Part shown: positions 2,480 through 41,078 of the stretch, one piece after another | How the letters are laid out: each line of letters opens with the position of its first letter | Position numbering within the stretch: the first letter of the stretch is position 1 | Notes under the pieces: model-generated | Databases searched by the model: none | Seen by the model: the letters and a program-made list of their open reading frames with translations, nothing else | Told to the model about the DNA's origin: nothing | Made by a program: the position numbers and the translations under genes | DNA from: Protoeuglena noctilucae | Taxonomy: Eukaryota | Assembly (NCBI GenBank): GCA_958009085.1 | Contig: OY253690.1 | Location: forward strand, 248,001 to 312,000 | Reading direction: 5' to 3' | Length of the DNA: 64,000 nucleotides

Positions 2480-3082
2480 GCGTTGAAGTACCGCGGATAA
2501 GGCCTGAGGCTTTGTATGCGGGGCTAGCACAGTCCCAGCTGACGCACCGGCCACGGCAGATTGCCTTGATGCGGGCGCAGTGCCCAGGGCGTCAACCGTG
2601 GACTGGCGCAGGTGTGCCGGAGGCTCGTCGCTCCTGTCGCGAAGGGGATCGTGCTGGTGACAGTGGCGTACTAGAGGTCCAGGAGTGTGTACACATGCAC
2701 TGCGCACGCTGGAGTCGGCGTCGGCGGAGCAAAGCAGGGACGCAGCTGGTGTTTGGGAGGCCGGAGGAGCTGAGCGGACCCGCTCGGGGCCGACAGCGAC
2801 GCGGTAGGTGAGACGGAGGCGCTTGGAGTTCGTGGTGGCGCGGATGAGCCGAGCAGACGCGCGCTGCAGCCCCACCCAATCATGGAGCACGGTAACGTTC
2901 GTGTCCCGTTCGACGCAGCGGGGTGTCGGAAGGGGCTGTCGGTGGCCATGTCGGCGGACGTAGATACGGAGGCGTCGTTAGAGGGGATGACCGTCGGTGA
3001 GGCGAGCACGGGAGGGCTGCGCTCCTGCGTTGGGAAGTGCAACCTTGCAGCGACATTTGGCGCGTCCCGCTGGGTCGCGCAG
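2480..3082 (+). repeat. Upstream flank of F-box-ankyrin copy A, homologous to 39030-39612
   Basis: Shared blocks include CGTGGACTGGCGCAGGTGTGCCGGAG, GGACCCGCTCGGGGCCG, GCGACGCGGTAGGTGAG and AGCCGAGCAGACGCGCG. Confidence 0.85.
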
Positions 3083-5211
3083 GGTGGAGCGACCTGCCCG
3101 GGGAGCTCCATCGCGAGATCCTGCGGCTGGTGCCCCTGCGAGACGCCACGGCGGCGCGGGGGGTGTCGCCGCAGATGCGCGACGAGGTGGACGAGGTGTG
3201 GAGGGCATGGGGCATCCGGGCCACGGCGGAGGACCAGATGGACGCTATCCGCGACAAATTTCGCTACGTGTATTTCGAACCTTCGACAGAGCTCGACTTG
3301 GCCCCGCTGGCGGTGTGGGTGTTCGAGGGGTCCCACGCGCATCACCTGGCGAGCCTGGGGCTGTGGTGGCTGGCCCTGCTGGTGGCGGAGGCGCCGGACA
3401 TCAACAACATCTCGTGGCAGGTGCCTAGTGACCGGCTCCCGGACCAGTCACCGCTGATGGTGGCGGTGCGGGCGCGTCGGCCGGTGGGGCGCGGGGCGGA
3501 TGGGAAGGTGCAGTGGGCGTACGCGCTGGGGGACGGGGAGGTGACGCGGGCGGTGCGGGTGGCGGTGGCGACGGGGGCGGATGTCAATCGGCGACTGGAT
3601 AGCGCGTGGCCGCTGATGACGTACTGCGCGGGGCGGGGGTGCCTGGAGGCAGTCAAGACATGCTTGGCAGCGGGGGCGCACGTGGATGCGCCTGGTGGCT
3701 CTTGCTACGACTGGAAAACAGCGCTGGTGCATGCCGCAAGAGGTGGCCACGAGGCAGTGGTGGAGGCGCTGCTGGAGGCGGGGGCATCGGCCAAGGTCGG
3801 GGAAGATGGCCGGGATCAGACGTTGGCAGCGGTGTGTGAGAATCATCCGACGCCGGGCATCGTGCGGCGGCTGGTGGAGGCGGGGGCGGACATCAACTCT
3901 CATGACTACGATGGGACTGCCCTCATTCATGCCGCAAGGTGTGGTAATGTGGCCGTGATGGAGGTGCTGGTGGAGCTGGGGGCCGACGTGGAAGGCACTG
4001 ACGGATGGGGGTGGACTGTGATGCGGTGGGCGGCGAACGGGGAGGTGGTGCGGTGGCTGGCTGCGCGAGGGTTTAGCATCCAGGGCGACGGGGGCCACAT
4101 GTCCCCACTCGGCTGGGCTTGCGATGATGGTCGGGTCGATGCCGTCCGCGCCCTGATCGAGCTGGGTGCGGACGTTGGCTACAGGGACATGGGGGGTTGG
4201 ACGCCTCTTCATCGTGCGATGATGTGCTCCTCCACAGACCAACAAAGGGTTGTGGAGATTATGCGGGTGCTGCTGACGGCAGGAGCGGACGTTAGAGCCG
4301 TTCAGCAGGACGGCAGGACGCCCCTGCACTGCGCCAAACATGCCGTGTGCGTGGATGTGTTGGTGGGCGCGGGGGCAGACCTGGAGGCACGGGACAGGGA
4401 GGGCCAGACGCCTTTCCATCACGTGTTGCAGCTTCCGGACAGTGATGAAGCACTGGTTGTCATGTCGGCTTTGGTGGCAGCGGGGGCAAACCTCAACGCT
4501 GCCGATGGGAGCGGCCGGACGCCCCTGCACAGCGTCAGGCACGCGGCGTGCGTGGACGTGCTGGTGGGGGCCGGGGCAGACCTGGAAGCGCGGGATGTGG
4601 AGGGCCAGACGCCTCTCCACTATGCGGTGAGACTCCGCAGCTGGGACCCGCTAACATTACCAGCACTGCATCTGACGAGGGCTCTGCTGGCGGCAGGAGC
4701 GGACGTTCATGCCGTCGACAATCGGGGCCGGGCGCCCCTGCACTGCGTCGCGCACGCGGGGTGCGTGGACGTGCTGGTGGACGCGGGGGCGGATCTGCAG
4801 TCGCGGGATAGGGAGGGCAAGATGCCTCTCCATGAGATTGCGCACCTTAAGTTAGGGTATGCGGACAGGGTAATGCGAGAGATGCTGGCAGCGGGGGCAG
4901 ACATCCACGCCGTTGACAGTCGGGGCCAGACGCCTCTGCATTGCGTCGAACACGCCGCGTGCGTGGACCTGTTGGTAGACGCCGGGGCAGACCTGGAGGC
5001 GCGGGATGGGGATGGCAGTACCCCGATTTATGCGGTTGTCGCTAAACCGGTTGAGATCGATGAAGAGTACGGGCCAATGCCGCTGACAGAGGTCGTGCTG
5101 CGGCTGGCCGACCTGGGTGCCGATCTGGTCAACACGGGCGGGGAGCCGGGGCTGGTGATGCGCAGGGTGGAGGAGCTGCGGGCCGAGCGCAGACCCAACC
5201 ATGCCGACTGA
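2987..5211 (+). CDS. F-box plus ankyrin-repeat protein, copy A (exons 2987-2996 and 3083-5211; in-frame upstream ATGs at 2948 and 2882 are possible)
   Basis: Splicing GTGAGG..CGCAG gives MTVG-WSDLPGELHREILRLVPLRDATAARGVSPQMRDEVDEVW, an F-box consensus. It is followed by many GxTPLH..LLxAGAD ankyrin repeats. Confidence 0.9.
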
Positions 5212-5269
5212 CCCGGCGGGGAAAGCGGCAGCGGGGCACACAGGTGAGGGAGCAGACCGCGGGTGGTCG

Positions 5270-5690
5270 CTGGGCAGGTCGCCTGTGCTGCAGCCGTGGT
5301 ATTGTCATAGCGTCGAGTGACTGGCGGCCAGGTAGATAGGCCATGGGCTGGCTGATGCCGTGCATATGGTTTGACGTGGCAGGCCGGCGTTTGTGGAAGG
5401 CACCCCCCCGCTCGGTTGTGGGCCGCAGAATGGTGGGGAGTGAGGCGGGCGTGTGTGCACTGCGCGATGTGACGGGGGAGTGGCGGTGGATCAAGGGAGA
5501 AGGCCGTACCGCGGGTACTGTGTAGCACTGAGCTGCCTCATCTGCATTTCCAAGCCGGAGGACTGGGGCCGCTGAGAGCGGTTGTGGGATTGGTGGCTGA
5601 AGCAGGCGGAGTACGCGGGTGTAGAGCTAGCGAGTGGGAATGATGCAGGAAACGATCCACGAGCGAGTGTGTCGCCGTCATGCAGATGCA
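5270..5690 (+). repeat. Downstream flank of F-box-ankyrin copy A, homologous to 38550-38977
   Basis: Shared blocks include GCAGCCGTGGTAT, ACTGGCGGCCAG, GATAGGCCATGGGCT, CAAGCCGGAGGACTGGGG and CTGAAGCAGGCGGAG. Confidence 0.85.
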
Positions 5691-6146
5691 TGGCTGTGGA
5701 GGGGTCAGCGACGAATGAATGCACGTTGCAAACGCGCCAGTGATAAATCCTGGGCATAGCATTATCACAGTGCCGCAGTGGTGGTGTGGTTCAGTGCCGG
5801 CCGATCTCGAATCTCGCCGTGCTTCCTCCGGCCCATTGACTGTCGACCTCTCTTTCAAAGACTTAAGATACCCCGGACACCAATCCGGTGCCCATTGCCG
5901 CACATCATCAAGAGCAGCTCTTACGACGAACCTCCCTCCCCAGTATGGTTCACCACTGCTACTGACCCCTTGCTCCCTGTCGCCTCTCGTGCCCCTGTCC
6001 CTCCCTCCCCCGTCCCCTCCCCCTCACTCCCCTCTCACTCTCTCTCTGTCGATCGCTCCCCTCTCCCTCCCCTCCCCTCTCACACCCTCCCTCTCACACC
6101 CTCCCTCTCACTCCCTCCCCTCTCACTCCCTCCCCTCCCCATCCCC

Positions 6147-9100
6147 TCACTTGCTCCGCACCTTCTTGGCCGGCCTCTCCCTCTCCCGCCTCATCTCCTG
6201 CTCCTGAGCAGCAGCAGCCGCCGCCTGTTGCTCCGCCAGCCACTTCGCATACAGCGCCACAGACAGATCCTTGGTCCGTCCCTCCTTCCCCAGAGCCTCT
6301 GCCACTTTGGTAAGGGCACCCTGCACGCGCTGGGGGTCCTGGGCATAGTCCCTGGGAGGGGTGGGGGTTGGGGTGAGGGGTGAGGGGAGAGGTGAGGGTG
6401 GAGATTGGCGTACTCCATAAACATGCATGGCATTGGGATGACAGTCCATGCACTTCAAAAGCATGCCATCATCCCCCAGTAAACATGGGCCCTCATTGCC
6501 CCCCCCGCACATTGTCACTTGTCCAAGACAGCTCCACATACAACCCCCCATCCCTCACTTGTCCAGCAGCTCCACGTACACCGCCGATCTCCCCCACCGC
6601 GTCTCTGTCTTGACGCGGCCCACGTTGGCAGAGCGCGCCGCATTGAGCACCGAGGACGCTGCGGGAATGGGACGCGGATGCATGGCATAGTTAGAAAGGA
6701 AGATGGAGAGGGGTTGCTAAGGAATATGAGAGACAGGGTCACGGGACAAAGTGAACCCCCATGGACAGCTAGGGGCTGTCGTCACGCATGCATAGGGCAC
6801 CGCCATCACTACCATCGCCCCCCTCCACCTCTCCTCACCTGTCACCCCCATGTCACTGTCCATGCTCGCCCCCTTGTACACCACCAGCACGTTGGTGCGC
6901 GCCGACCCAAGGGGGCTGTCCCCATCGATGCTCCAATAGGCCAGGTCCACGCCAGCCGCGTTGTAGCGGTTGCGGTAACCTGAAAGGCAGACAGACGCGG
7001 GGTGTCGTGGCAGTTGCGGTAACCTGACGGGCCAACAGATACAGTGGGGTGGCATGAGCAGACGCCAGCGCAGGGTCACATGAGCATGCAGCATGCACCC
7101 CCACCACCCCTCTCTACCCCAACACCACCCTCACCCTCCATCATCCCCCGCATGCACACCCCACACCCCAGTAATCTCTCACCCTCCACCACCCCTATCA
7201 TACACACCACCACCACCCCTCACCCTCCACCACACCATCATGCACCCCCACCACCCCACACCCTCATGTTACCCCACCCCCTCTACCCCACTCCACCACC
7301 CCCCCACACCCTCATGTTACCCCACCCCCTCTACCCCACTCCACCACCCCCCCTCACCCTCATGTTACCCCACCCCCCCTACCCCACTCCACCACCCCCC
7401 CTCACCCTCATGTTACCCCACCACCCCCCCAACCCACCCATCCCACCCCCTCACCCTCGACCGCCTCGAGCCCCGGCGCCCTCCCCATCCCCTCCATCGC
7501 CCTCTCCACGCCCATCGGCCCCTCCGCCGCCATCCCCTTGGCCTGCGCCACCCGCAGCAGCGCCCCAAACACCGCCCCGGTCATCCACGCATCGTACCCC
7601 GCCTCATGGGCCAGCCCCGCGCCCTCTACCCCCGCATATCGCCCGAAGCCCTCGGCGTGCCTGACCCTGGGTAGCGTCCAAGGCTGGGGAAGGTCGCTGT
7701 GATCAGTGGTGGTGTCGCCGGCCTTGTCGCCTGTCTTGTCCCCTGCATTGCTCTCCTTTGCTCCGTGCACCAAGTCGCGGAGATAGGCGTCTACGGCAGC
7801 GGATGCGGGGCCGGAGCGCTCCACTGCAGGGGGATGGGGTGGGGTGGGGTTCAGGGGTGGGGGTGAAGTGATGCGTGGGGCACATGGGCGTGGGGGTGAC
7901 TGACGGAGAGGGACAGAGCGAAAAAGGGGGCCATGGATGAGAAGCAGTCAGTGTTGAGATCACGACAGATCTTTGCATGCATTGACAGCTGCCAACCTCT
8001 TCACCAGCCAACCCACCCCACCCCTCCCCTCTCCTCACCCAGTGCCGTGTACACCGTCCCTCCCATCTCCTTACCAACTCCCCACTACCCCACCCCCCTT
8101 CCCATCTCTCACCATACAAGTCTGCCCAATTCCCCCTTCCCCACCCCATCCCACCCCTTCTCACCCAGTGCCCTGTACCCACTACCCACCCCACCCCACC
8201 CCACCCCACCCCACCCATCTCTCATCTCTCACCCAACGCCATCTTCACAGTTCCCATTCCCCACACTACCCCACCCCACCCCACCCCACCCCACCCATCT
8301 CTCATCTCTCACCCAACGCCGTGTACACCGTCCCCAGCGCCGTGTCCCCCTGGAACACCTCAAAGGGCAATCCCCTGGCAATCAGCTTGGTATCGTACAC
8401 CCCCCCCGGCAGCCACTCCCTCATCAGAGCACAGAAGGCGGGCCAGGTGGGGGGCAGGGGCGCGATGAACTGAGAGGTGAGGAAAAGGAGGTCCAGGCCC
8501 ATGTTGTGGCCGATGAGGGGCACGCGGCTATCGCGCAGGACCTCCATGACGGCACTGAAGCCCATGAGGTCGTGGACGGCCTGGACAGATGCCGCGCGGG
8601 ACGTCTGCTTGCGGGACTGCACCTCGGACGCTGGGGTGGGGGGGGGGATGGGGACGATTGGGGCTGGGGTGGGGTGAAGTGGTGTGGGAGGGGAGGGAAC
8701 AGGGGCGCATCTGCTTTGCGACCAGGGTTGCTAATGCGCTTGCGGGCAAGGCAGGTGAAGGGGGCTAAGAAACCACGGTCAATCATCGTGAACATGACTG
8801 TCCCCACCGCAACCCCTCTCAGTCATCGCAGTCTACACTCTACTAAACATCACAGCCCCATCAACCCCCCAACACCCTCCCCCCCCCCCTCACCCGTGAC
8901 CCTCTCGAGCCTCAGCCCCACCCAGGACCCCCTCTCCTGCTCCACTTTGTCCCACCACAGGGAGTGCGCCTCCGGTCCCTTGTCCTTCTGCCTCTCTTGG
9001 ATAGTCGCCAGCTCATAGTACAGCACCTTTCGCAGAAAGGCGTTCATGGGGGCGATGTCTAAGGGAGCCACGTCACCCTCAGTTGCCAGCCATGCTTCGA

Positions 9101-10834
9101 CCTTGGCCACATGCTCGTCGCGCCACTTGGTTGCGTCCTCGTTCTGGGAGATAAGTGAAGGGATTCAAAATGATGGTCGGAGATAGGAAGGGCGATGGAT
9201 GACGTTGACAACGACAGCGGTGGTGGTGACGGTTGTTGCAGCGGCGAGGGGAATCTGTCAATCACTGTGGTCGATAGATTGGGATGTGCATGGGCACTCC
9301 TCCTCCGCCCTCTCCGCACACGCTCCACGGTCCACTCATAAGTCACCAGCCCCATCACATTTCACAAATCCACTCACCAGTCACCAAGCCCGATAACAAT
9401 CCCATATGCTTCCCCACACAGATAGCAACAGATCCCCTCACCAGCGCCGGGCACTCCTCCTCAACCCTCTCTCAATCACATTCCCGCACATCTTAACACA
9501 TTCAAAACCACATCCACATTCGAATCCCCTCACCAACGCCGGGCACTCCTCCTCGGCCCTCTCGGCCAGCCTCTGCAGCAGCGCCGACCGCGATGACAGG
9601 GGCGCGAAGGGCACCCCGTGGTATACCCACTTGTTGAAGTCGAAGCTGCACGAGGCCAGGAAGTGCAGGCTGCCGGGGTCGCAGAGGAAGAAGCGGGGGG
9701 GGGAGCCGTCGCGGGGCTGGGCGGGGAGTTGAGGGGGGGAGTATATTAGAGGAGCAGGTGGGCGGGGCTCAGGGGGGCTGTGTTGGGGGGGGGAGTAGAA
9801 TAAAAGGAGCGGGGGGGGGGGAACGTCGCGGGGCTGCATTGCATGGGGGGGAGGGAGGGTGAAAGGCAGGGGAGGTGGGGGGAAGGGTAGGAATTGAGAG
9901 GGGGGGTGGAGGGGGGTGTAGAATGGAAGACGCGGGCGGGGGGGGGCTGAGGGGGTAGTGAGTAGAATGGAAGGAGCGGGGGGGCCTGGCTAAGGGGGGG
10001 AGGGGGTGGGGGGAGGAGTTGAAGGAGGGTGTGTGGGTACCGAGTCATGCAGTGAGGGTGTGAGGGAGGGGTGACGACGAAGTTTCAGCTGACACAACGC
10101 CCCATCCGTGCAGTCGTCACTCCCCATCCTTTACCTCAAGCGGCATGTCACCCCCCCAAACCATGCACACGTCACGTCACTCTCCCATGCATCCCTCACC
10201 TCGGGCGGCATGACGTAGAAGTTGAAGGTGTGGGCCACGTAGCACCCGGGGCTTTCCACGGTGGGCCCTTCCTCCCACTGAAACACCGACACGCCGATCT
10301 GGTGCGCCAGAAACTTCTCCACGCTGGCCCTCTGCAAACGGCGGCGGTGCATGGGAGATGGGCGCACCCGCTAGTCCCGCTAGGCACGCTGGTGCAGCTA
10401 TGAGCGTGGTCCTTTCATGCACGCCACGTGCATTCGAATCACACGCTGAGACAGAAACGAAGGCGACTCAGCAAAGGCAGCGGCATGTGCCCAAAGGGCA
10501 TATGCACGACGCGTGTTCCGATGAAGTCACTCGCCTGGGCGGCGTATCGGTCCTCGGCCGTGTCCCACCAGCTGTTGATGTTGTCGGGGCCGAAGAGACC
10601 CGTCATCTCGCAGTCGATGGCCACGAACTGCGCGTCGTTCAGGCAGTCCCTGCGGACAGGCGATTGCACTTGCACGTTGAGAAAGCCCGTTGTGGGTGAA
10701 AGTCACGTCGATCGCGCATGCTGCACGCTCGCGACCTGCAGGACACTTCCAGAGATACACACGCACGCAGCGCCGGGCGCCGCTCGCCGGAGGGCGGAGA
10801 GCATCCGCGGGAAATTCTCCTTGGTGACCTCCAT
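6147..10834 (-). CDS. PARN: Poly(A)-specific ribonuclease (CAF1/DEDD family), multi-exon
   Basis: MEVTKENF..FVAIDCEMTGLF, with D28/E30 in the same register as human PARN when the GC donor at 10787 is used. Also FDFNKWVYHGVPF, R3H-like MNAFLRKVLYYEL, LIGHNMGLDL, YDTK, HEAGYDAWMTG and a C-terminal RRM-like region. Confidence 0.92.
7261..7424. repeat. Intronic minisatellite, about 3.4 copies of a 48-nt unit
   Basis: The unit CCCTCATGTTACCCCACCCC..CTACCCCACTCCACCACCCCCC starts at 7261, 7309, 7357 and 7405. Confidence 0.9.
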
Positions 10835-11585
10835 GCTGAAAACGTCGCCGTTGGGACGCGGAGAGGCCGCGCCCATCTCGTACGAGTCGCGCCAGCGATC
10901 GATGATGCTGTCGTACGAACGCTGCGGTTGGCGGAAGAGGCTGAAAGTCGCCCAGGGCCCGCGGGCAGGTTCGAACACGAGTGGCGCGCTCACGGTGCCG
11001 CTCGCGCGCTCACCACGGACTCCAGGCTCGCCAGAAGCGCAGCAGTCTCAGTCTCCATCGAGTCCGTCCCGTTCCCGTTCCCCCGCCGGCGATCGCCCAG
11101 CTGCGGGGTTCCCATCCTGGCCGCCAGCCTGGGAGGGCCTCGGGGCAATTGGGAGCGGCGGTGTATTGGCGCGACGCCTGGCCTGCCTGCAGCAGACAGG
11201 GCAGCTAGCATTCAAGTGCTGCGCAAGGGATCGGCACGACACGAGCACGCTCAGCGAGCTCGGAGCGGCAGGCGAGAGTCGCAGTCAACGGCACGATGTG
11301 TGTGTGAGTCAAGGCTGGATGTAAGCGCCGTGAGTTCTCCTGCGGACTCCAGCCCCTCTGTGCAGCCGTCAGCCCTTCGACACAGGGTCGACGTGTCAAG
11401 CAACAGGGCCGCCAGTACTCCGTGGCGCTCTCCAACACCATCCTCATTCAAGGTCTGAGCTGCCGGCCTGTGACTGCCACGGGCGTCCAGCTGCACTATC
11501 GGGCCATACCAGCCCTCACTACCTAACCCTACGGGAGCGCGTCACCCACACCAGACTGGTCATGTATGGGTCGCCCCACGTAGCG

Positions 11586-12497
11586 CTACGCCCGCGCCTG
11601 GGCCTGTGGCTGTGCGCCCGGCTCGCTGCCAGCTTCTGCCGTCGTCCCCCCCGCAAGCTTCTCCAACTCCTTGTTCCAGTCTGTCTGAAATACCCACGGC
11701 TGCTTCCCCGCCAACGCCACCCGCCACAGCGGCTCGTTCTTGATGCTCCCGACCTTCACCTGCAGCTTCTTCCGCATCTCCCACACCTCCACGAACCCCT
11801 TGTCTCGCTGCGGGGCAGGGGATGGACGGGTGGGCCGCATGAGCAGGGTTCCCGTGAAGCGACGTAACCAAAAAGCGTACACTGCGGCGCGTAGCGGGTC
11901 CCGAGTCGCTCACAACGTCATGTACTAACGCTCACCTTGCTCACAGCCTCGTCAAACTTCTCCAGCGAGCCGACCTTGCTCCACGGCAACCGCCCCAAAC
12001 TCAGCTCGGGCCCGTGGACGGGCGTCACGCGCTTGAAACCCCTCCTGAGCGGGAAGCGGTAGCTTACCACTCGCATGGTGTCAAGCGAACAACGGCCTGG
12101 CGAACGGCTGGAGCACGGCGAAGCCGCGCCTGGTCGCCACGCCGTTCGGTCCCGCCGCGGGCGCACGCGACGGCGCGGCTCACCTGACGTTCCACAGCCG
12201 AAAAGCGTACACATCCCCGTGCTTGCCATCGCTCCCCGGCCTCACGTTCGCCACGAGGTAGCGCACGCTGCGGGACACGGGCGCGGCATCGGCTCGTGCC
12301 GCTCGTGGAGCGCTCGAGGTCCCCCGACAGGCGAGCGCTATCGATCGACTGGACATACAGCGCTCAGTGACGCACGCCGCGCCTGACGCGACCGCTCACT
12401 TGGGCGAGTGCCGGACGCACTCCACGAGCTCCCCCACGCCGTAGTTCGGCAGGCCCCTGAGGAGGGGTATCAGCCTCTTGGGCGCGGCCTCTGCCAT
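11586..12497 (-). CDS. Mitochondrial ribosomal protein mS34-like, multi-exon
   Basis: The spliced N-terminus LLRGLPNYGVGELVECVRHSPNVRYLVANVRPGSDGKHGDVYAFRLW resembles remembered plant mS34 LPNWGIG..YQITKINLYKDGRHGKAWG. Internal exon limits are tentative. Confidence 0.62.
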
Positions 12498-23405: not shown

Positions 23406-26059
<2,654 letters not shown>

Positions 26060-28329: not shown

Positions 28330-31300
28330 ATGTCGTCTCTGGAGAAGGACGGCGGGTCGTCGGGGCCCATCGAGCTCCTGGCGAAGGGCATGGCCGCCAC
28401 GGCGGTCCGTCCGGCCCCCGGCCTCTCGAGTGCGCCTCGCCGCCGGCGCCCATCGCTGCTCTCGCGTGGCTCTTCTCATTCTCATGCGCGCTGCCGTGTC
28501 CTTTTCGTAGTGCATGGCTCGGAGGCCGCGCGGCGCCAGGCCATCACGGAGCTTCTCTTCTTCGCGAGCGTCGGGGACCTGGCGCGCTGCAAAAACCTTT
28601 GCGACGCCTTCTCCATCGACATCAGCGATCCGCGGTGCTGCGACTACGACAAGCGGACTCCGCTGCACCTGGGTGCGCCGGCAGCTGCGTGCATGCTCGC
28701 GTGCCCTGCGCCCCCCTCCCCGCGCCCCTCGTCGCCTTGGCGCACCCTGCTTGTTCACTATGCATTCATCTTGCATGCCCCGCGACGGACTTCCTATCCC
28801 CCGCTCCCGGCAGCCGCGGCGGAGGGGGCGTTCTCGGTGGTGCAGTGGCTGCTGCGCAAGGGGGCGCACGTGAACGCCGTGGATCGATTCAAGCGGACCC
28901 CGCTGGAGGACGCGGTGCTGGGGGATCACGGGCAGGTGAGGAACATGCCACTGCGCTTGTATATGATAACACGTGGGCGCACCGTGACGAGTTACCGTGG
29001 TGCCATCCGCGTCGCCCCTTCTCATCTCCCCTGCTCATTCCCCTGCCCCCGCAGGTGGCTCAGCTGCTGGAGAGCTGCGGGGGCAAGGTTCTGGACCGCG
29101 ACAATCCCATCGAGGCGCTGGCATTGGTGGACATCTCCCGGACCAAGCTGGCCCAGTCCGTGCGCTACGATGACCACAACCTGTGGGAGATTGACGCCAC
29201 GGACATCGAGTTCGTCAAGAAGCTGGGGGAGGTGAGGTGTCCAAGGGATGAAAAAGTGTCTTCTTTGGTTGCCGCTGCACTTGGCAGGGGCATCGCACTG
29301 CAGCTGACAATCACTGCGCTGCTTGGCTCACACTGCTGTCTTGCATGTCATGTGCTTATCCAGTTTCCCACCCTTGTCTCGCTCCCAGGGTGAGTTTGGT
29401 GAGGTGCACATGGGTCGGTGGAATGGGACGCTCGTGGCCGTCAAGGTGCTGCACAAGAGTGACGAGGTCGCCATGGGGGACTTCCGGACGGAGGTAAGGG
29501 GAGAGAAGGGGGGGTTTGTGACAAATATGGGGTGACTGGGGAGTGCAGAGAGGTGCAACTGTGTGTGTAGAGGTGCCTACCCCTCTCTCACACCCTCACC
29601 TACCCTCACACCCTCACCGTCTCCTACCCCTCCTCTCTTCCCCGCAGCTCAACGTGCTGATGCGCACGCACCACCCCCACACGGTCCAGTTCCTGGGAGC
29701 CGTCACCAAGACCATGCCGCTCATGATCGTGGCCGAGCTCATGGCGGGGGGGTCGCTGGTGAGGGCGCTGTGGGAGGGGACGTACATTGTAGAACTGCTT
29801 ATGATGGTATCTGTGGTGAAGACAGGTGTTGAATGGGATGGGCTGGCGCCTGGTGTGGGGTTGCCCGGTGCGGCGTCGTGGCTCATACAGCGGTGTGTAT
29901 GGACTGCTACAAGAATTGTAGCAAGCAAAGTGGCATCGAGAGACGCTGATGCTGACCCACGCATCCCTTTCCTCGCTACGACTACCCAGGCGGATCTGCT
30001 GAAGACGGGCCTGTCCCTGTCGAGGCGCCGTATGCTGGACATCGCGCTCGACACGGCGCGGGGGATGGTGTACCTGCACGGCAAGAAGCCACAGGCGAGT
30101 GGCATGAGTAAATGCCTGCGTGAAGGCTCTCACTGCGTCGGGCCGTCATACAAACCCATTGCTATGCTCATCACCTTCTCTGACCCCCGCTTTCTCTTCC
30201 CAGAGCAGCGTCGTCCACTGCCACGCTCATCACCCCCTCACACACACCCTCTCCTTCTGACCCCAGGGCGTCATTCACCGGGACCTCAAGCCGGCCAATT
30301 TGATGATTGCGGGCAACCCGTACCGACTGGCGCAGAGGGGGTTCCGCGAGAGGCTTATGCTCGAGACGGGCATCGTCAAGATCGCCGACTTTGGGCTCAG
30401 CAAGGTGAGGGTTGCTGGTTAGAGGCAGAGGTGGGGGAGGAGAGAAACATGTGGTCTCAGCACTCCCACTCCCACTCCCACTCCCACTCCCACTCCCACT
30501 CCCGCCCCCGCAGTCTCTGACGCTGAATGTGAAGAAGAGCGTCCACCACAAACTCCGGGAGGCCACCCAGGCCGCCACGCTGCCCCCAGACCCACCCAAG
30601 GATGCAGGGGCCAACCATGCACAGGTGAGATGTGATGTGTGAATCAGATGACTGGGCTTGATTGAGTGAGTCAACGCAGGGGCCAACCACGCACAGGTGA
30701 GATGCGATTCGTGGGTCAGGGCAATATGCTTGATATCATTTGGACAGTACCAGCCGTCCTTGCCCTTAGCTTGCTTGCTGGCTCGGTTGCTTCGTCGCCC
30801 TTCCCTGAGTTGGCACTTACTCACGACACAGGGCCACTCGCCCGCGCTTGCCTTGTCTCAACTGCTCCTCTCGGTTGTTGCCTCCTTCGCAGTCTGGCGA
30901 CGCGGCGGACGCCATCCCGTCCTACCAGCTGACGGGAGAGACGGGGTCGTACCGGTGAGGCAGGGGCTTGCATGTTGGTGCGCGTGTGTGCTGACTGTCA
31001 GTATTGTGACTCGCCACGTGACCTCGGCATGCCACTTCATCTTACAGCCAGCAACATAGTGCATGACTCTCTATGTTGTCACTGTAACGTTTGCAACTGC
31101 CCTCGTCCCTCTCAACAAGCCCCACCGCCACACACCACCGCCCCTACCCTATCACCACCCCCCTCCCTCCCTCTCAGTTACATGGCCCCTGAGGTGTTCC
31201 GCCACGAGCCCTACAACAACAAGGTGGACGTGTACGCGTATGGCATGATCGTCTACTACCTCTTCGAGGGTGTGCCGCCCTTTTATGACATGGACCCCAT

Positions 31301-31912
31301 CGCAGCCGCCAGGCGAGACGGGGTGGACAGTGGATGATTATATATGGATCCGTTTATAAATATAGGCATGCCTACTGGTGACTGCGTCATACGTGTGATC
31401 ACTCCAGCCATGCAGCTGAGCAGCTGCGCGAGTGTTTCGTGGCTCTTCGTATTGTGTATCAGACGCCCACCCTGCTCGTGCCGACTGCTTCTCTTTGCAG
31501 GGCCGCGAGCCTCAACATGGCCAGGCCGCAGTTCCTGAACCCCAACAGCAGGGGCACGAGGACGCCCAAGGTGAGTCACGGCTGATCGAATGGCTCGTGC
31601 GTCATGTATGTCTGGTTGTGCGCTCATATGGCCTTCAGGCCTCTTTCCTTAGTAGCAGCAAGTGTTGCGATGGTAGTATAACTTACACTACCAATTTGTC
31701 GAATAAGACGCCCATCTGCATATGCTAATGGCAAACGTCGCGTTGCTGCCCCGCAGGAGATCCAGGACCTGGTGCGGCTGTGCTGGGACGAGAGCCCCTC
31801 CCGCCGGCCCGAGTTCTATGAAATCGTGGAGACGCTGGAGGGGATGCTGGCCAAGCTGCCGCCCATGAGGCCCATCCTCTGCGGCACAGGGGGCAGCTGC
31901 ACCGTGCAGTGA
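28330..31912 (+). CDS. Ankyrin-repeat Raf-like protein kinase (plant ILK/VIK type), copy 1, C-terminus CTVQ
   Basis: Ankyrin motifs DYDKRTPLHLAAAEG and DRFKRTPLEDA, then GEGEFG, VAVK, HRDLKPAN, DFG, TGETGSYRYMAPE. Confidence 0.92.
30462..30503. repeat. (CTCCCA)n intronic microsatellite; a similar tract lies at 46048-46098
   Basis: Read directly from the sequence. Confidence 0.9.
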
Positions 31913-32619
31913 GCGCGTGAGACCAGGCGCTGCGCCGTGCATGATGCAGGGAAGCAGCGCGGGGAGGGACACGCTGCGGGCAGTAGATGGTATGGTGTCC
32001 AGGATTGAAAGAAATCCGCTTTCGATCAGGGACGGAGCACGAGAGATGCAATGAAGTCTACCCCATCCACTCATTTGCGCACTCCAACGCGCCAGTCTCC
32101 TGTTCCCTGTCATGGCTCCGCAGCGGTCCTGCCGCCCGCCGCCTCAGCCGAGGGCAAAAGCCCTCAACGCGGGTAGTGACTCTGCAACTGGCACATCAAG
32201 TCCCCGGCTCCCCGTTCTGTGTTCACTGTGCCGGTGCCGAAAGCTAAAGCAGGACTTCGCGCCATCACAGGATCTCTAATCCCCTTTGCAATCGCTGCGA
32301 GCTAGGCATGCATCTCCGGTAGATTGCTGCCTCAGAAAAGCCAGCTGTGGCTCGCCGGTGCACGTCTGTCGACACCAGGGTCAGGGACAGGCAAGCAGCG
32401 CCGCGCGGAGAGGGTGCGGGACCCGAAACGGACCCGAGAAGCGGGCGGTCCCAAGTTGAGGACAGACAGGTCCCGTGCGGACCGCCTACCGCCTAGCTGT
32501 GGCGTGCGAGGGGCTCCCTGGGATTCTACTGTCGTTATCGAAGTGCATGTCTCCACGCGACGCCGCTAGGTGGCTTCTTCGCGCGCAGAAGCCTATTGTG
32601 CTCTGATGTGCCTTGCAGC

Positions 32620-35600
32620 ATGACCACGGCCGGTGCCGGCGCGCGCGCGCTGAACGCGCTTATGATTCCGGAAACGGACCTACAGGTGGGCGCCAAGCTC
32701 GCCGACGGAGGGCAGGGCGAGGTCTTCCGGGGCCGGTGGCGCAACCGGGACGTGGCCGTCAAGCGTTTGCATGCGGACATATCGGGCGTTGCGCGGGGGC
32801 AGCTGGGCGCGGTGCTGAACCGGGGCATGAAGGAGCTCGAGCGGATGGCGGCGGCGGCCACGAGCAGCACCCGCGTGTGCCCGTGAGTGGCCTGGGAAGC
32901 TGGCTGCAGGCATGCACAGCTGCGAGGGGCACTGCCTGCGAGCCCCTCCGAGGCGCAGCACCTGTCGCCCGGCCGCAGGCTTCTGGGTTTTACGGTCAAG
33001 GATGCCCAGCTGCACATCGTGATGCCGCTGTACGAGCGGGGGTCGCTGGTGCGGCGCATCGCGGAGCGGGGGGCGGGGCTGCGGCCGGAGGAGGTGGTGG
33101 AGGTGGCGGTGCAGCTGCTGGAGGGGCTGCAGGACCTGCACCACCGCGACATCGTGCACAGGGACATCAAGCCGGCCAATGTGCTGGTGGACGACCAGGG
33201 CAACCTGCTGCTCGCGGACTTTGGGCTGGCGACGGTGGTGGAGGGGTCGATGGGGGTGTCGGTGAGGCGGGGGTGCCACGCCTGCCGAGGGATGCATGCT
33301 TGCATGTCACGGGATCGTATCGAGTGCTGGCCTGGTCTTGCGTCGGCAAGCGCCCAGCATCGATTGTCAGTGGTGTGGCCGCAGTGGACGTCCCTGGACG
33401 GCACACGCATCGGCGCGGTGGGCACGGCTCAGTATATGGCCCCCGAGCAGTGGGACACGGAGCTGGGGCGCCCCACGCCAGCGTCGGACGCGTACGCAGC
33501 GGCGGCGACGCTGTGCCACGTGGCGTCGGGGCAGCCGCCCTACGGCAACAAGCAGATGCAGCAGATCATGACGGACGTCCTGGTGCGCAAGCGGCTCCCG
33601 ACGGTGCCAGACTCGGTGCCGGAGCCGCTGCGGTCGGCGCTGCGGGGTGCGTTGCAGTTCCACGCCGCGGATCGGACGAGCGTGGCGGAGATGCTGAAGG
33701 CGGCGAGAAAATCAAGGTGAGGGACAGAGACATGTGGCTTTCATGCGGGAAGACTGCCCACATGTGCGGCAGCTCATGGTTGCTGTCCGCCAGCCCCCTG
33801 CAGCCTGGCGAAATGCTGCGTGTGCAAAAAGGATGCGGATGTCCAGCTGACGGTGACGTGCAGTCAAGGGGCGCACCGGGTGTGCGGGGAGTGCCTGGCT
33901 GTCAAGGTGGGGACGCTGGCCGACAGCCGGGTGGCGTTCACGGCAGAGGGGCACCTGCAGTGTCGGAAGTGCACAGGGCAGGCGTGCGAGGGGGAGCTGT
34001 TTGCCCACGAGGTGGTGGCCAAGACACAGCACGACCCTGAGGCGGGCCGGCGGTTTCTGAAGGCCAGCCAGCAGCACGCGGCGGAGGCGGCAAAGGCCGT
34101 GAGTGCGAGGGAGGTGGAGGAGCTGCAGAAGCGCCTTCTGGAGGTCACGAAGCGGAGCGGGTCGGAAGCGGAGGCCGTGGACGCGCACCGGAGTCTCGTG
34201 GAGGAGCTGAACGTGAAGCGGTGCCCGTGGTGCTTGGCGGACTGCAGGGAGGACGCGCATCGGCACGTGGCCAGCTGCACGCGCAACCCGCGGAGGCTGA
34301 GCGTGTCTGAGACGGAGGCGAAATTTCGGCAACACGAGGCAGAAGAGGAGCGGATGCGCGTGCGATATGTGAGAGGCAACGTGCCGTGGGGGCAGCGGGC
34401 TGTGTGGGAGAAGGCGAATGGGCTGCCAGCAATTCGGGAGGCACGGATGCAATGGACGGACGTGGAGGCGGAGACGGGGATGGGGTGGCAGGGCGGGGCG
34501 TCGGGAAACAAGGTGAGGATGGGGGGAGTGAAAGTGGTGCACCAATGGTGGGTGCGTCGTGACAGATGGACAAGGCGGGTGACATTGGATTTGTAAGCGG
34601 ATGTGATTGCACCCTTGCGTGTGAAAAGCCAGTGAGGTACGAGCACATGTAGATGTGCCGGAGATGGAACCGATTGTGCTGTGGATGCAGGGTGGGCGGG
34701 ATAGGGACCCAGGGCCTGCCGTGGTGCAGCCCACTCCGGGCCAGAATGCCGCGGAGACGTCGGGGAAGCTCTTGCGGACGCTGGCTGGGCACTCAGATAT
34801 GGTGCACTCGATAGCCGTCTCCCCTGACGGGCGGTGGGTGGCGAGCGGGTCGGAGGACAACACGATCAAGGTGTGGAATGCAGCAACGGGGAAGCTCGTG
34901 CGCACGCTTTCTGGGCTTTCACAGGGTGTGGGATCGGTGGCCTTCTCCGTCGACGGCCGGTGGCTGGCGAGCGGATCGTGGGACGGTGCAGTCAAGCTGT
35001 GGGACACGGCGACGGGGAAGCTCATGCGGACGCTTTACGGGCATTCAGAGGGGGTGGCATCGGTGGCCTTCTCCCCCAGCGGTGTGTGGGTAGCGAGCGG
35101 GTCCGCGGACAGCACGGTCAAGCTGTGGAGCACAGCACCGGGGGAGATCGCGCGCACTCTGGCTGGGCATTCTGATACGGTGGCATCGGTGGCCTTATCA
35201 CCTGACAGCCGGTGGCTGGCGAGTGGGTCGTGGGATAGCACGGTCAAGCTGTGGGACGCAGCAACGGGGGAGCTTGTTCGCACGCTGTCTGGGCACTTAC
35301 AGTGGGTGCGCTCGGTGGCTTTCTCCCCCGACGGGCGGTGGCTGGCGAGTGGGGCATATGACAGGACGGTCAAGCTGTGGAACGCGGCGACAGGGGCGGT
35401 CGTGCGCACAATGGAAGGGCACTCAGACTGGGTGTACTCGGTGGCTTTCTCTCCTGACGGGCGGTGGGTGGCGAGCGGGTCGTTGGACGAGACAGTCAAG
35501 ATGTGGAACACGGCGACGGGGGAGCTGGTGCACACACTGTATGGGCACTCTGGCTCTGTGTGGTCGGTGGCTTTCTCCCCCGACGGGCGGTGGGTGGCGA

Positions 35601-35653
35601 GCGGGTCGGTGGATACAACGGTCAAGCTGTGGAACGTAGGAACGTTGCGCTAG
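32620..35653 (+). CDS. Protein kinase fused to a RING-like Cys/His domain, a second Cys/His cluster and 7 WD40 repeats; exons approx. 32620-32882, 32979-33261, 33385-33716, 33804-34512, 34691-35653
   Basis: GGQGEVF, VAVK, HRDIKPAN, DFG, GTAQYMAPE; CCVC..CSQGAHRVCGEC..CRKC; CPWCLADCREDAHRHVASC; seven 42-aa GH..WD repeats. Splice phases are consistent across all junctions. Confidence 0.85.
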
Positions 35654-36073
35654 GGCACTAGTGACATCGATGGGATGGTGCCGCGGATATAGTCGCTGGT
35701 TTGCTGGCTGTGGTTTTGAACAGGTTCGCTTGTCATAACGAGGTGTCAGATGCCTCAATGTGTTTTTTTTGCAATGCCGCCAGTGAGGCCAGTGAGGCTG
35801 ACTCACGCAAGGCATTTTTCCCACAGATGCCCTCCTCTGCCGCCCCTGTCCACAGCCACTATCACCATTTGCTCTCCACTATATCCTTTCGCCTCCACCG
35901 TTCAAGCATCGCCCTAGCATGCAGGCACCTTCTCAGCTACAACGCAGCCCCCGCATCCCCACCCACCACGGCCCACTCGCTGCGAGCACTGCCACCGCCC
36001 CAGCACTGTCCCAGCTGCCCTCGCTCCCGGCCACCTCGTCTCGACCCGAGTCGCACCCTCGTTAAGACATGGG

Positions 36074-36273
36074 NNNNNNNNNNNNNNNNNNNNNNNNNNN
36101 NNNNNNNNNNNNNNNNNNNNNNNNNNNNNNNNNNNNNNNNNNNNNNNNNNNNNNNNNNNNNNNNNNNNNNNNNNNNNNNNNNNNNNNNNNNNNNNNNNNN
36201 NNNNNNNNNNNNNNNNNNNNNNNNNNNNNNNNNNNNNNNNNNNNNNNNNNNNNNNNNNNNNNNNNNNNNNNNN
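36074..36273. other. Assembly gap (200 N)
   Basis: Run of N. Confidence 1.
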
Positions 36274-36853
36274 CCCGCCGGGCGACCTTGATCACCTGCG
36301 CCTGCTCGGCTGCGATAACGAAGGAGTCACCGGCGATCGCGCACGCGCGGCGCGCGGGATCCCGGGGCCGGCGGGCGTCGACGCGCGTGCGAGGGCCCGG
36401 GGGCGCCGGGGAGGGGCGCAAGCACGGCCTCCCGGCGGTGAAGGCCGCGGTAGATCCGCGGGCGCCGTTGGGGGGGCCGCTCCCCGCGGAATCTCACCCT
36501 CAGCCATTTCCCGCCAACGGACCCAGCCAGCCGACAAGCCGCTCTGCCCCTTCGCCCCCGTCCGCCACGATTCAGCCCGCCGCCAATCTTCCTCGGTTGG
36601 GAGAGGGCGATCCGGAGCGCCCCCGTGCGCGCAAGCGTTCCCGAGTATCGCCTGCCGCTGGCACCGCGTTCGGGCAGGGGGCGCGCTGCTCCTTTGGCTC
36701 CTGGGGGTGACGAGCGGCTCCACGCGACTCACTACGAACGGAGGCGAGGGCGCATGCGACCATCCAAGCGATCCTGCCCCTGAGGTGGCACTTTTGCCGC
36801 TGCCGTCTGAAGCGGCCTTTTCAGCCTGCCTCAACAAGGAGACATTGGAAACG

Positions 36854-38465
36854 ATGACCTACGGTGAGCCGCACCATATGCAGGAATGCGCCGCTGTGGT
36901 CCGCTCGTTCGTTGCAGTCGCTGGCGGGCGGAAGCCTCGTTGCAGCATAGGGCCACGTCCGCTGGGTCGCGCAGGGTGGGGCGACCTGCCCGGGGAGCTG
37001 CATCGCGAGATCCTGCGGCTGGTGCCCCTGCGCGACGCCACGGCGGCGCGGGGGGTGTCGCGGGAGATGCGCGACGAGGTGGACGAGGTGTGGAGGGCGT
37101 GGGGCATTTCGGCGACCGCGGAGGACAAGCGGAAGGCCGTTTATGAGCGCTTCCGGCGTCACAGGTTCACGACGGAGCTCGCCTTCAGTCCGCTTGCGGT
37201 GTGGGCGTTTGAGGGGTCCCATGCGCACCACCTGGCCAGCATGGGGCTGTGGTGGCTGGCCCTGCTGGTGGCAGAGGCGCCGGACCTCAACGCCATGGCC
37301 TGGGGCGTTGGCGCCTACCGCTATATGTGGACGTCAGATGAGCACGAGTCAGAGAACGACGACGAGCGGTTCCCGGACCAGTCACCGCTGATGTTGGCGG
37401 TGCAGGCGCAGCGGCCGATGGGGCGCGGGGCAGACGGGGAGGTGGCGCGGGCGGTGCGGTTGGCGGTGGCGATGGGGGCGGACGTTAACCGGCGGCTGCG
37501 GGGAGCACTGCCGCTGATGTCGTACTGCGCAGGGCGGGGCTGCTTGGAGGCGATCAAGGCGTGCCTGGCGGCGGGGGCGGAGGTGGATGCGACAAGAGAG
37601 GACGATGGACATGTAAATTGGTGGACGGCGCTGGTGCATGCCGCAAGGGGGGGTCACGAGGCGGTGTTTAATGCGCTGGTGGAGGCGGGGGCGGAAGCCC
37701 TAGCTCACGGTGAGGATGATACCCTGACCTGGGTGTGCCGAGGTCATCCGACGCCGGGCATCGTGAGGCGGCTGGTGGAGGCAGGGGCGGACGTCAGCGC
37801 TTGGGGCTTGCGTGGCCGGCCGGCCATCTTTTGTGCCGCATATTATGGCAATGTGGCCGTCATGGAAACTCTGGAGGAGCTGGGGGCCGACGTTGCAGGA
37901 ATTGACTCCCGTGGTGTGACCGCGATGTCGCGTTCTCCTACAGGGGAGGTGGTGCGGTGGTTGGCAGCGCGGGGGGTGAGCATCCAGGGCGGGGAAGGCT
38001 ACCAGGCACCGCTCCTTAATGTTATCATATCTGGTCGCGTCGATCCCATCAGTGCCCTGATTGAGCTGGGTGCGGACGTCAATCACCGAGGTTCTAAGGG
38101 CCGGGTGCCTCTGCACTGGTCGGTGCATTGTTTCCTTGAGGGGCGATCTGCCGCGGAGGCGACGCGGCTGCTGCTGGCGGCGGGGGCGGACGTCCACGCT
38201 GTCGATGAGGACGGCATGACGCCCCTGCACTGTGCCCGGCACGTCGCGTGTGGATGTGCTGCTAGGCGCGGGGGCGGACCTGGAGGCGCGAAATAAAAAG
38301 GGCAGGACGCCGATCTGCACAGCCGCAACGTACAAGTATTACGACAGATCCGATGTCGTGCTGCGGCTGGCCGACCTGGTTGCCGATCTGGTCAACACGG
38401 GCGGGGAGCCGGGGCTGGTGATGCGCAGGGTGGAGGAGTTGCGGGCCCGGCGCAGGGGTGGTTAA
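36854..38465 (+). pseudogene. F-box plus ankyrin-repeat protein, copy B, with a 2-nt frameshift near 38250 (pseudogene or sequence error); intron 36864-36974
   Basis: Starts MTYG-WGDLPGELHREILRLVPLRD. It has GCGTGTGGAT where the paralogues have GCGTGCGTGGAC, and the conserved C-terminus (VDVLLGAGADLEAR..NTGGEPGLVMRRVEELRA) continues in another frame to 38465. Confidence 0.8.
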
Positions 38466-39503
38466 GCCAACTGAGCAAGGTGGGGACGGGGCCTGTGGCG
38501 GGGTGTCGAAAGAGAGCGTGCCGGCTTGTTATGGCCTGGGTCGTGGGGCCCATGGCACGTGGCCTACACTGCAGCCGTGGTATGGCTGTAGCGTCCAGTC
38601 ACTGGCGGCCAGATAGGCCATGGGCTTGTTGGTTACGTGGTTTTGCTTCACGTGGCAGGCCGGCATTTGCGGGAGGCGCTCCCCCGCTCGGTCGTGGGCC
38701 GCAGGGTGGCGCTCGCGGTGCAGCTGCCCCTGAGCAGCGCGGTGGGAGTGATGCAGGTGTGGATGCGCTGTGCAAAGTAGCAGGAACGGTGGTGGATTAA
38801 GGGAGCGGGCCATGCCACGGGTACTGTTTAGCACTAAGCTGCCCCGTTTACATCCTCAAGCCGGAGGACTGGGGCTGCTGAGAGAGGCTGCGGAGTTGCA
38901 GACTGAAGCAGGCGGAGAACGCGGGTGTAGCTAGCGTCGTGCGGGATGGTGCAGGGGTCGATCCGCAGGCAGATGCAGCTGACCTGCGGGGACGGAAGGG
39001 CTAGAGTGCCTTGGCTTTGCTGTATGGAGCAGCATTGAAGGGTAGCTGGCTAGAGGAAGCTAGTGTGTGGGGCCATCAGCGACTCGGCAGGCGCAGCGGG
39101 CGCGGCAGGTCGCCGTGATGCGCAGTCCCCGGGCGTCAGGCGTGGACTGGCGCAGGTGTGCCGGAGCCGCGGCTCGTCGCTGCGGTCGCGCAGGGTGGCC
39201 GTGCTGGTGGCAGTGGCGTGGAAGAGGTCCTGGAGTGTGCACACAAGCACTGCGCACACTGGAGTCGGCGTCGTCCGGGCAGCGCATCGAAAACTGCCCT
39301 CTCGGGGACCCGCTCGGGGCCGTCGGCGACGCGGTAGGTGAGCTCAAGGCGTTTGGAATGCCCGACGCCGCATATAAGCCGAGCAGACGCGCGCGGCAGC
39401 CCCCGGGCACATCATAGAGCACGGTAATGCTCATGTCCCGTTTGGCGCAGCGAAGGGTCGCGGGCGGCCGTCGGTAGCGGTATTGGCGAATACCGGCACG
39501 GAG

Positions 39504-41078
39504 ATGTCGGCAAGGGCTGTGACCGTCGGTGAGGGCGCGCAAGAGGGCTACGCTCCTGCGTTGGACGTGCAGCCTTGCAGCGACATGTGGAGCGTCCCGC
39601 TGGCTCGCGCAGGGTGGGACGACCTGCCCAGGGAGCTGCACCGCGAGGTCCTGCGGCTGGTGCCCCTGCGCGACGCGACGGCGGCGCGGGGGGTGTCGCC
39701 GCAGATGCGCGACCAGGTGGACGAGGTGTGGAGGGCGTGGGGCATCCGGGCCACGGCGGAGGACAGGCAGAACGCCGTTCTAAGGGGATTGTTCCGTGCC
39801 GTTCTCTTGACGGAGCTCGATTTCGGTCCGCTGATGGTCTACGCGTTCCAGGGGTCCCACGCGCACCACCTGGCGAGCCTGGGGCTGTGGTGGCTGGCCC
39901 TGCTGGTGGCGGAGGGGCCGGACTTCAACGGAGTCACGTGGCATGTTGCCGAGTATCGGCTCCCGGACCAGTCACCGCTGATGGTGGCGGTGCGGGCGCG
40001 GCGGCCGGTGGGGCGGGGGGCAGACGGCAAGGTGCAGTGGGCGTACGCGCTGGGGGACGGGGAGGTGGCGCGGGCGGTGCGGGTGGCGGTGGCGACGGGG
40101 GCGGATGTCAATCGGCGACTGGACAGCACGTGGACGCTGATGACGTACTGCGCAATGCGGGGGTGCTCAGAGGCGGTCAAGGCGTGTCTGGCGGCGGGGG
40201 CGGAGGTGGATGCGGGTTGGGGCTGGAAAACGGCGCTGGTGCACGCGGCACGGGGGGGTCACGAGGCGGTGGTGGAGGCGCTGCTAGAGGCGGGGGCGTC
40301 GGCCGCAGTTGGGCGTGATGGCCGGGATGAGACGCTGACCTTGGTGTGCGATGGGCATCCGACGCCGGGCATCGTGCGGCGGCTGGTGGAGGCGGGGGCG
40401 GACGTCAACTCTCGTAATCACAGTGGGACGGCCCTCATGCATGCCGTACGCCGTGGCAACGTGGCCGTGATGGAGGTTCTGGTGGAGCTGGGGGCAAACG
40501 TCGAAGTAATTCACGACCTTGACTGGGCTGACATGCCCCATGCTCTGACAGGGGAGGTGGTACGGTGGCTGGTGGCACGGGGGTTGAGAATCCAATTCGA
40601 CGAAGGCTACGATTCCCCACTGGGTTGGGCTTGCGGACAAGGTCGAGTCGATGCTGTCCGCGCCCTGATTGAGCTGGGTGCGGACGTCAACGGCAAGACC
40701 GATAATGGTTGGGCGCCTCTCCATTTCGCGGTGCGCTCTGAAGAGCATCAGGCTGTGGAGATCACGCAGCTGCTGCTGGGTGCGGGGGCGGACGCCGGCG
40801 CCGCCGATGAAAGCGGCAGGACGCCCCTGCACGATGCCCGCCACGCCGCGTGCGTGGACCTGCTGCTGGACGCCGGGGCAGACCTGGAGGCACGTCTCTG
40901 GGACCACAGGACGCCGATTTACATAGCCGCGATGGACAGGCATGAAGACATGACCGAAGTCGTGCTGCGTATGGCCGACCGCGACGCGGACATGGTCAAC
41001 ACGGGCGGAGAGCCGGGGCTGGTGATGCGCAGGGTGGAGGAGCTGCGGGCCCAGCGCAGCCGTGGCCAGGCCAGCTGA
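39504..41078 (+). CDS. F-box plus ankyrin-repeat protein, copy C (exons 39504-39528 and 39613-41078)
   Basis: MSARAVTVG-WDDLPRELHREVLRLVPLRD, ankyrin repeats, and the same C-terminal NTGGEPGLVMRRVEELRA as copies A and B. Confidence 0.9.
   Translation: MSARAVTVGEGAQEGYAPALDVQPCSDMWSVPLARAGWDDLPRELHREVLRLVPLRDATAARGVSPQMRDQVDEVWRAWGIRATAEDRQNAVLRGLFRAVLLTELDFGPLMVYAFQGSHAHHLASLGLWWLALLVAEGPDFNGVTWHVAEYRLPDQSPLMVAVRARRPVGRGADGKVQWAYALGDGEVARAVRVAVATGADVNRRLDSTWTLMTYCAMRGCSEAVKACLAAGAEVDAGWGWKTALVHAARGGHEAVVEALLEAGASAAVGRDGRDETLTLVCDGHPTPGIVRRLVEAGADVNSRNHSGTALMHAVRRGNVAVMEVLVELGANVEVIHDLDWADMPHALTGEVVRWLVARGLRIQFDEGYDSPLGWACGQGRVDAVRALIELGADVNGKTDNGWAPLHFAVRSEEHQAVEITQLLLGAGADAGAADESGRTPLHDARHAACVDLLLDAGADLEARLWDHRTPIYIAAMDRHEDMTEVVLRMADRDADMVNTGGEPGLVMRRVEELRAQRSRGQAS

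Follow-up and report, generated by a model that had tools for sequence, protein, structure and literature searches.

Fast expansions of F-box genes and hypervariable ankyrin sensors have so far been described apart. In Caenorhabditis, F-box families undergo species-specific birth-and-death, with a conserved N-terminal F-box and a diversifying C-terminal substrate part, and recognition of foreign proteins has been proposed for them (PMC8665587). In fungal NOD-like receptors (NLRs) with hypervariable ANK, TPR or WD repeats, such as HNWD and Pa_3_8560 of Podospora, the inner helix and hairpin of the repeats vary, the repeats evolve in concert and their number differs (PMC4986451). In designed ankyrin repeat proteins (DARPins), residues on the concave face vary while the scaffold is fixed (PMC8229355), and a lineage-specific ankyrin expansion of 149 copies, with C-terminal repeats and clustering on some chromosomes, has been reported from the small marine green alga Bathycoccus prasinos (PMC3491373). 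An N-terminal F-box followed by ankyrin repeats is the layout of Legionella AnkB and of certain giant-virus proteins. The present analysis concerns a multigene F-box-ankyrin family of the green alga Protoeuglena noctilucae that joins the two patterns, and it centers on three paralogues in a stretch of 64,000 nucleotides (C23:248001-312000, hereafter the window) of the genome, which comprises 26.3 Mb in 27 contigs.

The family is probably a selected repertoire of adaptors for the Skp1-cullin-F-box (SCF) ubiquitin ligase; the fuller statement, in which the repertoire also serves defence, we consider evenly balanced. Intracellular recognition of viruses and parasites is poorly known in unicellular marine algae, and the family is a concrete, testable candidate with about 24 full-length adaptors, a mapped variable surface and a likely SCF output.

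A dispersed family of intact and broken genes

Genome searches, with 72 loci fetched, yielded 68 F-box anchors on 20 of the 27 contigs, corresponding to 66 core copies and 2 divergent relatives; this count is a lower bound, and a few further partial copies lack an F-box anchor. The initial annotation recognized a family of three paralogues: the window copies are real, but the nuclear family to which they belong has at least 66 core members. Eleven anchors lie on C23 and nine on C8. An open reading frame (ORF) of at least 430 codons is kept in 35 of the 66 core copies and the other 31 break earlier, a decay of about half of the family that had gone unremarked; the conserved C-terminal cap, counted by eye, is reached by 24 of the 35 long ORFs, and some broken copies could be rescued by cryptic introns. 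With no homologue outside this genome in the homology searches, these counts describe a lineage-specific birth-and-death expansion.

The shared layout is a short exon, a GT-AG intron of 78-111 nt, the F-box, a helical linker and about 10 ankyrin repeats. The CAG acceptor of the pre-F-box intron is present in 62 of 68 copies and the donor in 55 of 68. The database protein P0037 equals the C20 copy (C20:272211) minus exactly this intron and minus a second 84-nt GT-AG piece, and three contigs of RNA run X2 run from the intron acceptor into exon-1-like letters. Some family copies, at least, are spliced, and the family therefore spread as DNA and not as retrocopies. The second 84-nt piece lies inside a conserved coding block of C20:272211 and would be a cryptic or alternative intron. 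The long exon had been described as intron-free, which is true of copies 1 and 3, where it is uninterrupted, but a GT-AG intron stands directly before the F-box.

Several features of the wider family deserve mention. Divergent F-box-ankyrin relatives of 30-50% identity (C8:1039563, C18:58253, C11:164440, and also L068 and L069) could root it. The copy at the start of C21 (L045, 1-470) has a CCCTAA telomere-type array within about 450 bp, in place of its upstream flank, and C23 is a small contig (422,614 bp) on which several of the 11 anchors stand in tandem, 2.5-2.6 kb apart. Among the ENA matches, 13 of 50 fit a genome copy at only 79-90%; ENA proteins that look mosaic (e.g., P0004) were set aside as recombination evidence, since short-read misjoins or a spliced form suffice to explain them.

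The F-box and the ankyrin stack

The predicted F-box is borne out by Pfam PF00646 (cut-off 20.5 bits): copy 3 scores 22.3, copies 1 and 2 fall below with 19.2 and 17.6, and 37 matches exceed the cut-off genome-wide, 20 of which are core copies. The F-box of copy 3 (residues 17-66) docks in a structural model on the genome's own Skp1 (P0086), with a score of 0.82 against 0.02 for the best control; 51 of 78 solved complexes attain this mark, as do 2 of 108 mismatched pairs, the runs share at least 91% of contacts, and the predicted local distance difference test (pLDDT) of the partner is at least 84. The proposed Skp1 contact is thus reproduced for copy 3 as a prediction on a textbook, solved pair, so that the model may capture likeness rather than binding. 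The best named full-length matches of this Skp1 are among green algae, and the window sequence is also found in marine libraries, which together point to a marine green alga. There are three Skp1-like loci, a canonical one on C4 (L075, matching P0086) and two divergent ones on C21 (L074) and C20 (L076), whose matched parts are about 29% and 42% identical.

The ankyrin stack is recognized by Pfam Ank families and by PDB fold matches (model pLDDT 81, predicted template-modelling score 0.76), the top fold match being a DARPin. The linker is helical and of no known family (pLDDT about 50-80), and residues 40-125 of copy 3 have no look-alike at or above 0.9 in the Atlas. No NACHT, NB-ARC or death-domain Pfam family was detected in any of the three window copies.

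Variation is concentrated on the ankyrin binding face

Of the 35 long ORFs, 32 were aligned over 484 codons, after exclusion of three divergent ORFs and masking of eight aberrant tails. Ankyrin positions follow the usual repeat numbering, the face being positions 2, 3, 5, 9, 10, 13 and 14. Mean entropy is 2.34 over the 70 codons of this hairpin and inner-helix face, which was fixed after the entropy track had been seen, against 0.81 over 50 codons of the exposed outer helix (p = 9e-13), and the dN values are 13.5 and 2.7, an about fivefold difference. Two further variable patches in the linker, V1 and V2, were chosen because they vary. In ankyrin complexes the binding face is made of hairpin and inner helix, and the selected sites in the ankyrin repeats of fungal NLRs lie in these elements too (PMC4986451, PMC8229355), so the variable sites do cluster on a surface, as anticipated. 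The unalignable loops of varying length reported earlier correspond only in part to the family pattern: length differs in some hairpins and the linker patches and nowhere else, and many of the variable residues occupy sites of ankyrin helix 1 that align without indels.

Gene conversion among the copies

Ectopic gene conversion, with short as well as long tracts, reshuffles the copies, a pervasive process absent from the initial annotation. Between diverged flanks, the copies C8:128606 and C8:133559 are identical over 749 bp, each shares 321 bp with the inverted copy C8:181189, and two C12 copies are mosaic. Among 30 copies, 194, 87, 21 and 7 pairs have identical runs of at least 40, 50, 60 and 70 nt, compared with 38, 9, 2 and 0.5 when sequences are simulated on the tree, and the near/far ratio of linkage (r2) is 1.21, a value reached in 0 of 200 simulations. 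When two of the C8 copies are removed, the decay of linkage over about 50-100 nt persists and long identical runs remain 5-15 times the tree expectation. The 749- and 321-bp tracts cross variable patches, and for one V2 patch an identity of 92-96% links copies on C7, C8 and C21 that show background similarity in their remaining patches. The majority of variable patches are unique, with a median identity of 0.33-0.44 (62 copies).

Over-divergence extends to the silent sites of variable codons and of their neighbours. Four-fold silent divergence at conserved codons is 0.42 within 2 codons of a hypervariable site and 0.20 at a distance of 7 or more (206 sites), a shoulder that is significant when stratified by amino acid (p = 5e-5) and holds away from indels. 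The G + C content of four-fold third positions rises from 0.71 near hypervariable sites to 0.93 far from them, and is 0.61 in the hypervariable codons themselves and 0.97 in a helicase exon. Divergence peaks around selected sites are expected when conversion homogenises duplicates (PMC3924837).

Forward simulations favour such a combination. Unprotected conversion gives a face first-position divergence of 0.27-0.34, against 0.63 observed, and no shoulder (3/3 runs). When conversion is rejected with a probability of 0.6-0.8 per changed face residue and the face evolves at an omega of 1.3-1.5, the shoulder appears (0.37-0.44, 0.25-0.32 and 0.21-0.25), face divergence reaches 0.58-0.61, the multi-hit share is 0.13-0.36 and identical runs are of the observed order (4/4 runs); at a rejection of 0.9 or more the shoulder is kept and the multi-hit signal is lost (3 runs). 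A sequence-blind mismatch barrier fits worse (4/4 runs), with a scaffold divergence of 0.28-0.35 against 0.20 observed, a face divergence of 0.44-0.57 against 0.63, and too few identical runs. The fit is best when the scaffold is homogenised by conversion and the face is shielded by selection; the simulations demonstrate sufficiency and preference, not proof, and the hypervariable set is post hoc.

Possible selection on the face

In codon models, the scaffold is constrained, with an omega of 0.19-0.31 for the F-box, 0.16-0.18 for the ankyrin core and 0.27-0.30 for the outer helix, and the face, measured with its own dS, stands at 0.72-0.81. The comparison of M2a with M1a gives a likelihood-ratio test (LRT) statistic of 398, with an omega2 of 2.6 and 46 of 484 sites, in line with the dN/dS above 1 that had been predicted, but this outcome is model-dependent and weak with local dS or multi-hit models, local omega ranging from 0.8 to 1.8 overall. 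Multi-nucleotide changes make up 27-29% of events at variable codons, against 5% in the scaffold, and this holds at 36 codons away from indels; single-step simulation on the tree gives 0-3% and episodic selection 14-23%. Standard dN/dS tests are misled by divergence peaks that arise at the scale of codons under gene conversion, and this family is a clear example.

A number of points weigh against selected diversification of the face. When synonymous rates are left free, P(beta>alpha) exceeds 0.9 at only 4 of 484 sites, because silent rates rise with amino-acid variability, and the omega of the face alone stays below 1. The test on 96 face and V1/V2 codons that uses their local dS and codon frequencies (omega of 1.75 in the top class, LRT 54) is partly circular and post hoc, V1/V2 and the face set having been picked with their variability known, and the top class drops to 1.35 (LRT 6.8; 4.6 in another fit) once multi-nucleotide steps are allowed. 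Recombination violates all the tree models used, and the simulations, of 62 copies run forward, were tuned by hand with 1-2 replicates per setting. Divergence is 0.45 on the face and 0.20-0.28 in the flanks (36 pairs), a yardstick biased by the choice of pairs with similar flanks, and the intron diverges by 0.38 over 406 pairs, near the shuffled control of 0.48; flank and intron were both discarded as neutral clocks, being biased or near saturation. RNA-library contigs of X1 and X2 were likewise rejected as evidence for expression of the window copies, as they also cover intergenic DNA and the unspliced copy 3 intron and indicate presence only. Positive selection on the substrate-binding surface accordingly is a model-dependent reading of the sequences.

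Alternative explanations

Under genomic drift, a largely dispensable F-box family would carry an unconstrained face, and mismatches, not selection, would block conversion at diverged patches. Such drift has been proposed for plant F-box superfamilies (PMC7829749) and would suit a local face omega of 0.8-1.05 and the broken half of the family; a multi-hit share of 25-37% also arises in the simulations with a mismatch barrier. However, those same runs leave the scaffold too diverged, the face under-diverged and the identical runs too few, the observed 749- and 321-bp tracts run across variable patches, and exposed outer-helix residues are under purifying selection whereas the face is not. We regard drift as rather unlikely.

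A selected repertoire could also be directed at fast-evolving endogenous targets, such as proteins of selfish elements or transposons, toxin-antidote partners, or mating and self-recognition proteins. All the evidence for a selected repertoire fits this version equally well. Some exon-1 peptides are basic and presumably resemble nuclear signals, and a study of nematode toxin-antidote elements is said to be F-box-rich. The copies are, however, dispersed over 20 contigs rather than confined to one locus, and no co-varying partner gene was seen in the window and the 1.5-2 kb flanks; we give endogenous targets a minor share of the probability.

Origin from a giant virus or an intracellular bacterium with an AnkB-like protein, or from an endogenous viral element, had been suggested earlier and does not stand up well. 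The shared F-box-plus-ankyrin layout of AnkB, the long exon without introns and fold matches to viral ankyrin proteins would be in its favour. The 50 fold matches listed are, however, generic (13-30% identity), and no relative was confirmed in two viral-contig scans, one metagenome scan and a phage collection; the matches listed in the homology searches (50/50 and 31/31) all map to this genome's copies. Atlas look-alikes include ascomycete clusters with F-box and ankyrin repeats, and the layout is therefore also eukaryotic. Neither specific viral or bacterial homology nor a viral neighbourhood was found in these scans; the family shares a spliceosomal intron and its neighbours are ordinary intron-rich algal genes. 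By sequence alone an ancient transfer would still be compatible with these data, and we consider a viral or bacterial origin very improbable.

Targeted hypermutation or patch replacement, rewriting variable codons several bases at once, could claim the excess of multi-nucleotide events (1-3% is typical; PMC10336034) and an about twofold clustering of private scaffold changes, but it is hardly credible and not needed, given that conversion simulations without multi-base mutation yield 13-37%, that recently homogenised tracts have 0 differences in 111 hypervariable nt (C8) and 3 of 18 differences in the 105 hypervariable of 731 nt (C12, 5' tract; in the small 3' tract, 3 of 5 in 33 of 155 nt), and that no donor was found for the 48-nt V2 insertion of copy 2.

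The proposed mechanism

A selected adaptor repertoire would work as follows. Intact copies would bind Skp1 through the conserved F-box, as the docking model predicts; by analogy with other ankyrin proteins, the concave ankyrin face and the two linker patches would grip a substrate, which, as in established SCF biology, would be ubiquitinated and degraded. The family spreads by duplication at the DNA level and dies by stops and frameshifts; through conversion the scaffold stays similar and variable patches are sometimes exchanged among copies. Selection, judging from the simulation fit and the codon models, would keep the faces different and probably favour new ones; the most likely targets would be fast-changing foreign proteins of viruses or intracellular parasites. 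Tentatively, the family could be a natural DARPin-like library of intracellular degraders that deliver viral or parasite proteins to the proteasome, with conversion recombining patches between dispersed copies into new germ-line specificities.

The window genes and their neighbourhood

All 12 motifs quoted in the initial annotation lie on the + strand inside 2987-41078. Its scaffold blocks are present, but one copy 2 spelling is wrong (GSHAHHLASMG, not ...SLG), and the near-identity of the scaffold at the DNA level is confirmed by a 173-bp F-box query that is 93% identical to copies 2 and 3. All three genes are on the + strand. Copy 1 (2948-5211), which is intact, consists of coding exon 1 (MSADVDTEASLEGMTV; 2948-2996, its start set by the family pattern, with an alternative ATG at 2987), an 86-nt GT-AG intron at the position common to the family (2997-3082) and a long exon (3083-5211) with the F-box (about 3085-3192), the linker with V1 and V2, the ankyrin repeats and the C-terminal cap; a two-repeat ankyrin unit occurs four times, starting at 4265, 4466, 4679 and 4877. 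Its upstream flank (2560-2947) shares homology with the copy 3 flank (about 39100-39500) and was duplicated as DNA with the gene.

Copy 2 (36854-38465) has an uncertain, putative short exon 1 (36854-36863), a 111-nt intron (36864-36974) and a long exon (36975-38465) with the insertion in V2. A 2-nt gap near 38250 shifts the frame and leads to a stop at 38294-38296, the last repeat and the NTGGEPG cap being in another frame (stop at 38463-38465); the frameshift letters are identical in contigs of runs X2 and X6, and the copy is a truncated gene or a pseudogene. Copy 3 (39504-41078), also intact, has exon 1 (39504-39528), an 84-nt in-frame intron (39529-39612) and a long exon (39613-41078) with the F-box (39615-39728), the helical linker, 10 ankyrin repeats and the cap.

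A 200-N assembly gap lies just upstream of copy 2 (36074-36273), and one letter at 36470 is absent in runs X5 and X6. Other window genes are ordinary and intron-rich, e.g., kinases and a putative DEAD-box helicase, with putative HisD-like and ChlD-like genes as well. Directly upstream of copy 2 (32620-35653, +) are protein kinase exons, a Cys-rich zinc-finger-like stretch and an intron-free WD40 run of seven 126-bp repeats, 66-76% alike. Similar WD40 arrays are found on C11, C14, C15, C2 and C8; the array upstream of copy 2 presumably resembles HET-E-type repeat sensors, and the arrays may be a second repertoire. Carriage by a mobile element was rejected: upstream homology fades after about 500-600 bp at varying points and the window has no inverted repeat of at least 60 bp, although no search was aimed at target-site duplications.

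Comparison with known systems

The ingredients of the family are each known, namely F-box expansions, ankyrin sensors, F-box-ankyrin layouts and algal ankyrin expansions; their apparent combination in a green-algal host repertoire was not found in the literature searched (titles and abstract openings, subscription papers being mostly outside it), none of which describes such a family in green algae. The Caenorhabditis expansions share the birth-and-death dynamics and the conserved N-terminal F-box, but the present copies carry an ankyrin stack as sensor, belong to a unicellular algal host, lie mostly scattered and are demonstrably reshuffled by conversion. With the fungal NLRs the family has in common the variable inner helix and hairpin, concerted evolution and, in copy 1, variation in repeat number; in contrast to them, the Pfam search of the window copies found neither a NACHT/NB-ARC switch nor a death domain, the output would be ubiquitination, and paralogues trade sequence mostly in register, the repeats of a single gene not being highly alike. 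AnkB and the giant-virus proteins are encoded by pathogens, whereas this is an intron-bearing multigene family of the host whose only detectable homology is to generic ankyrin repeats. The Bathycoccus prasinos expansion is likewise lineage-specific, with C-terminal repeats and partial clustering, but its N-terminus has no database match, the available portion of that report mentions no F-box (PMC3491373), and no homology to it appeared in the searches. The closest structural parallel in the fold searches, the DARPins, shares the fixed scaffold and the variable concave face, whereas the algal proteins are natural, fused to an F-box and additionally variable at two patches of a linker that belongs to no known family.

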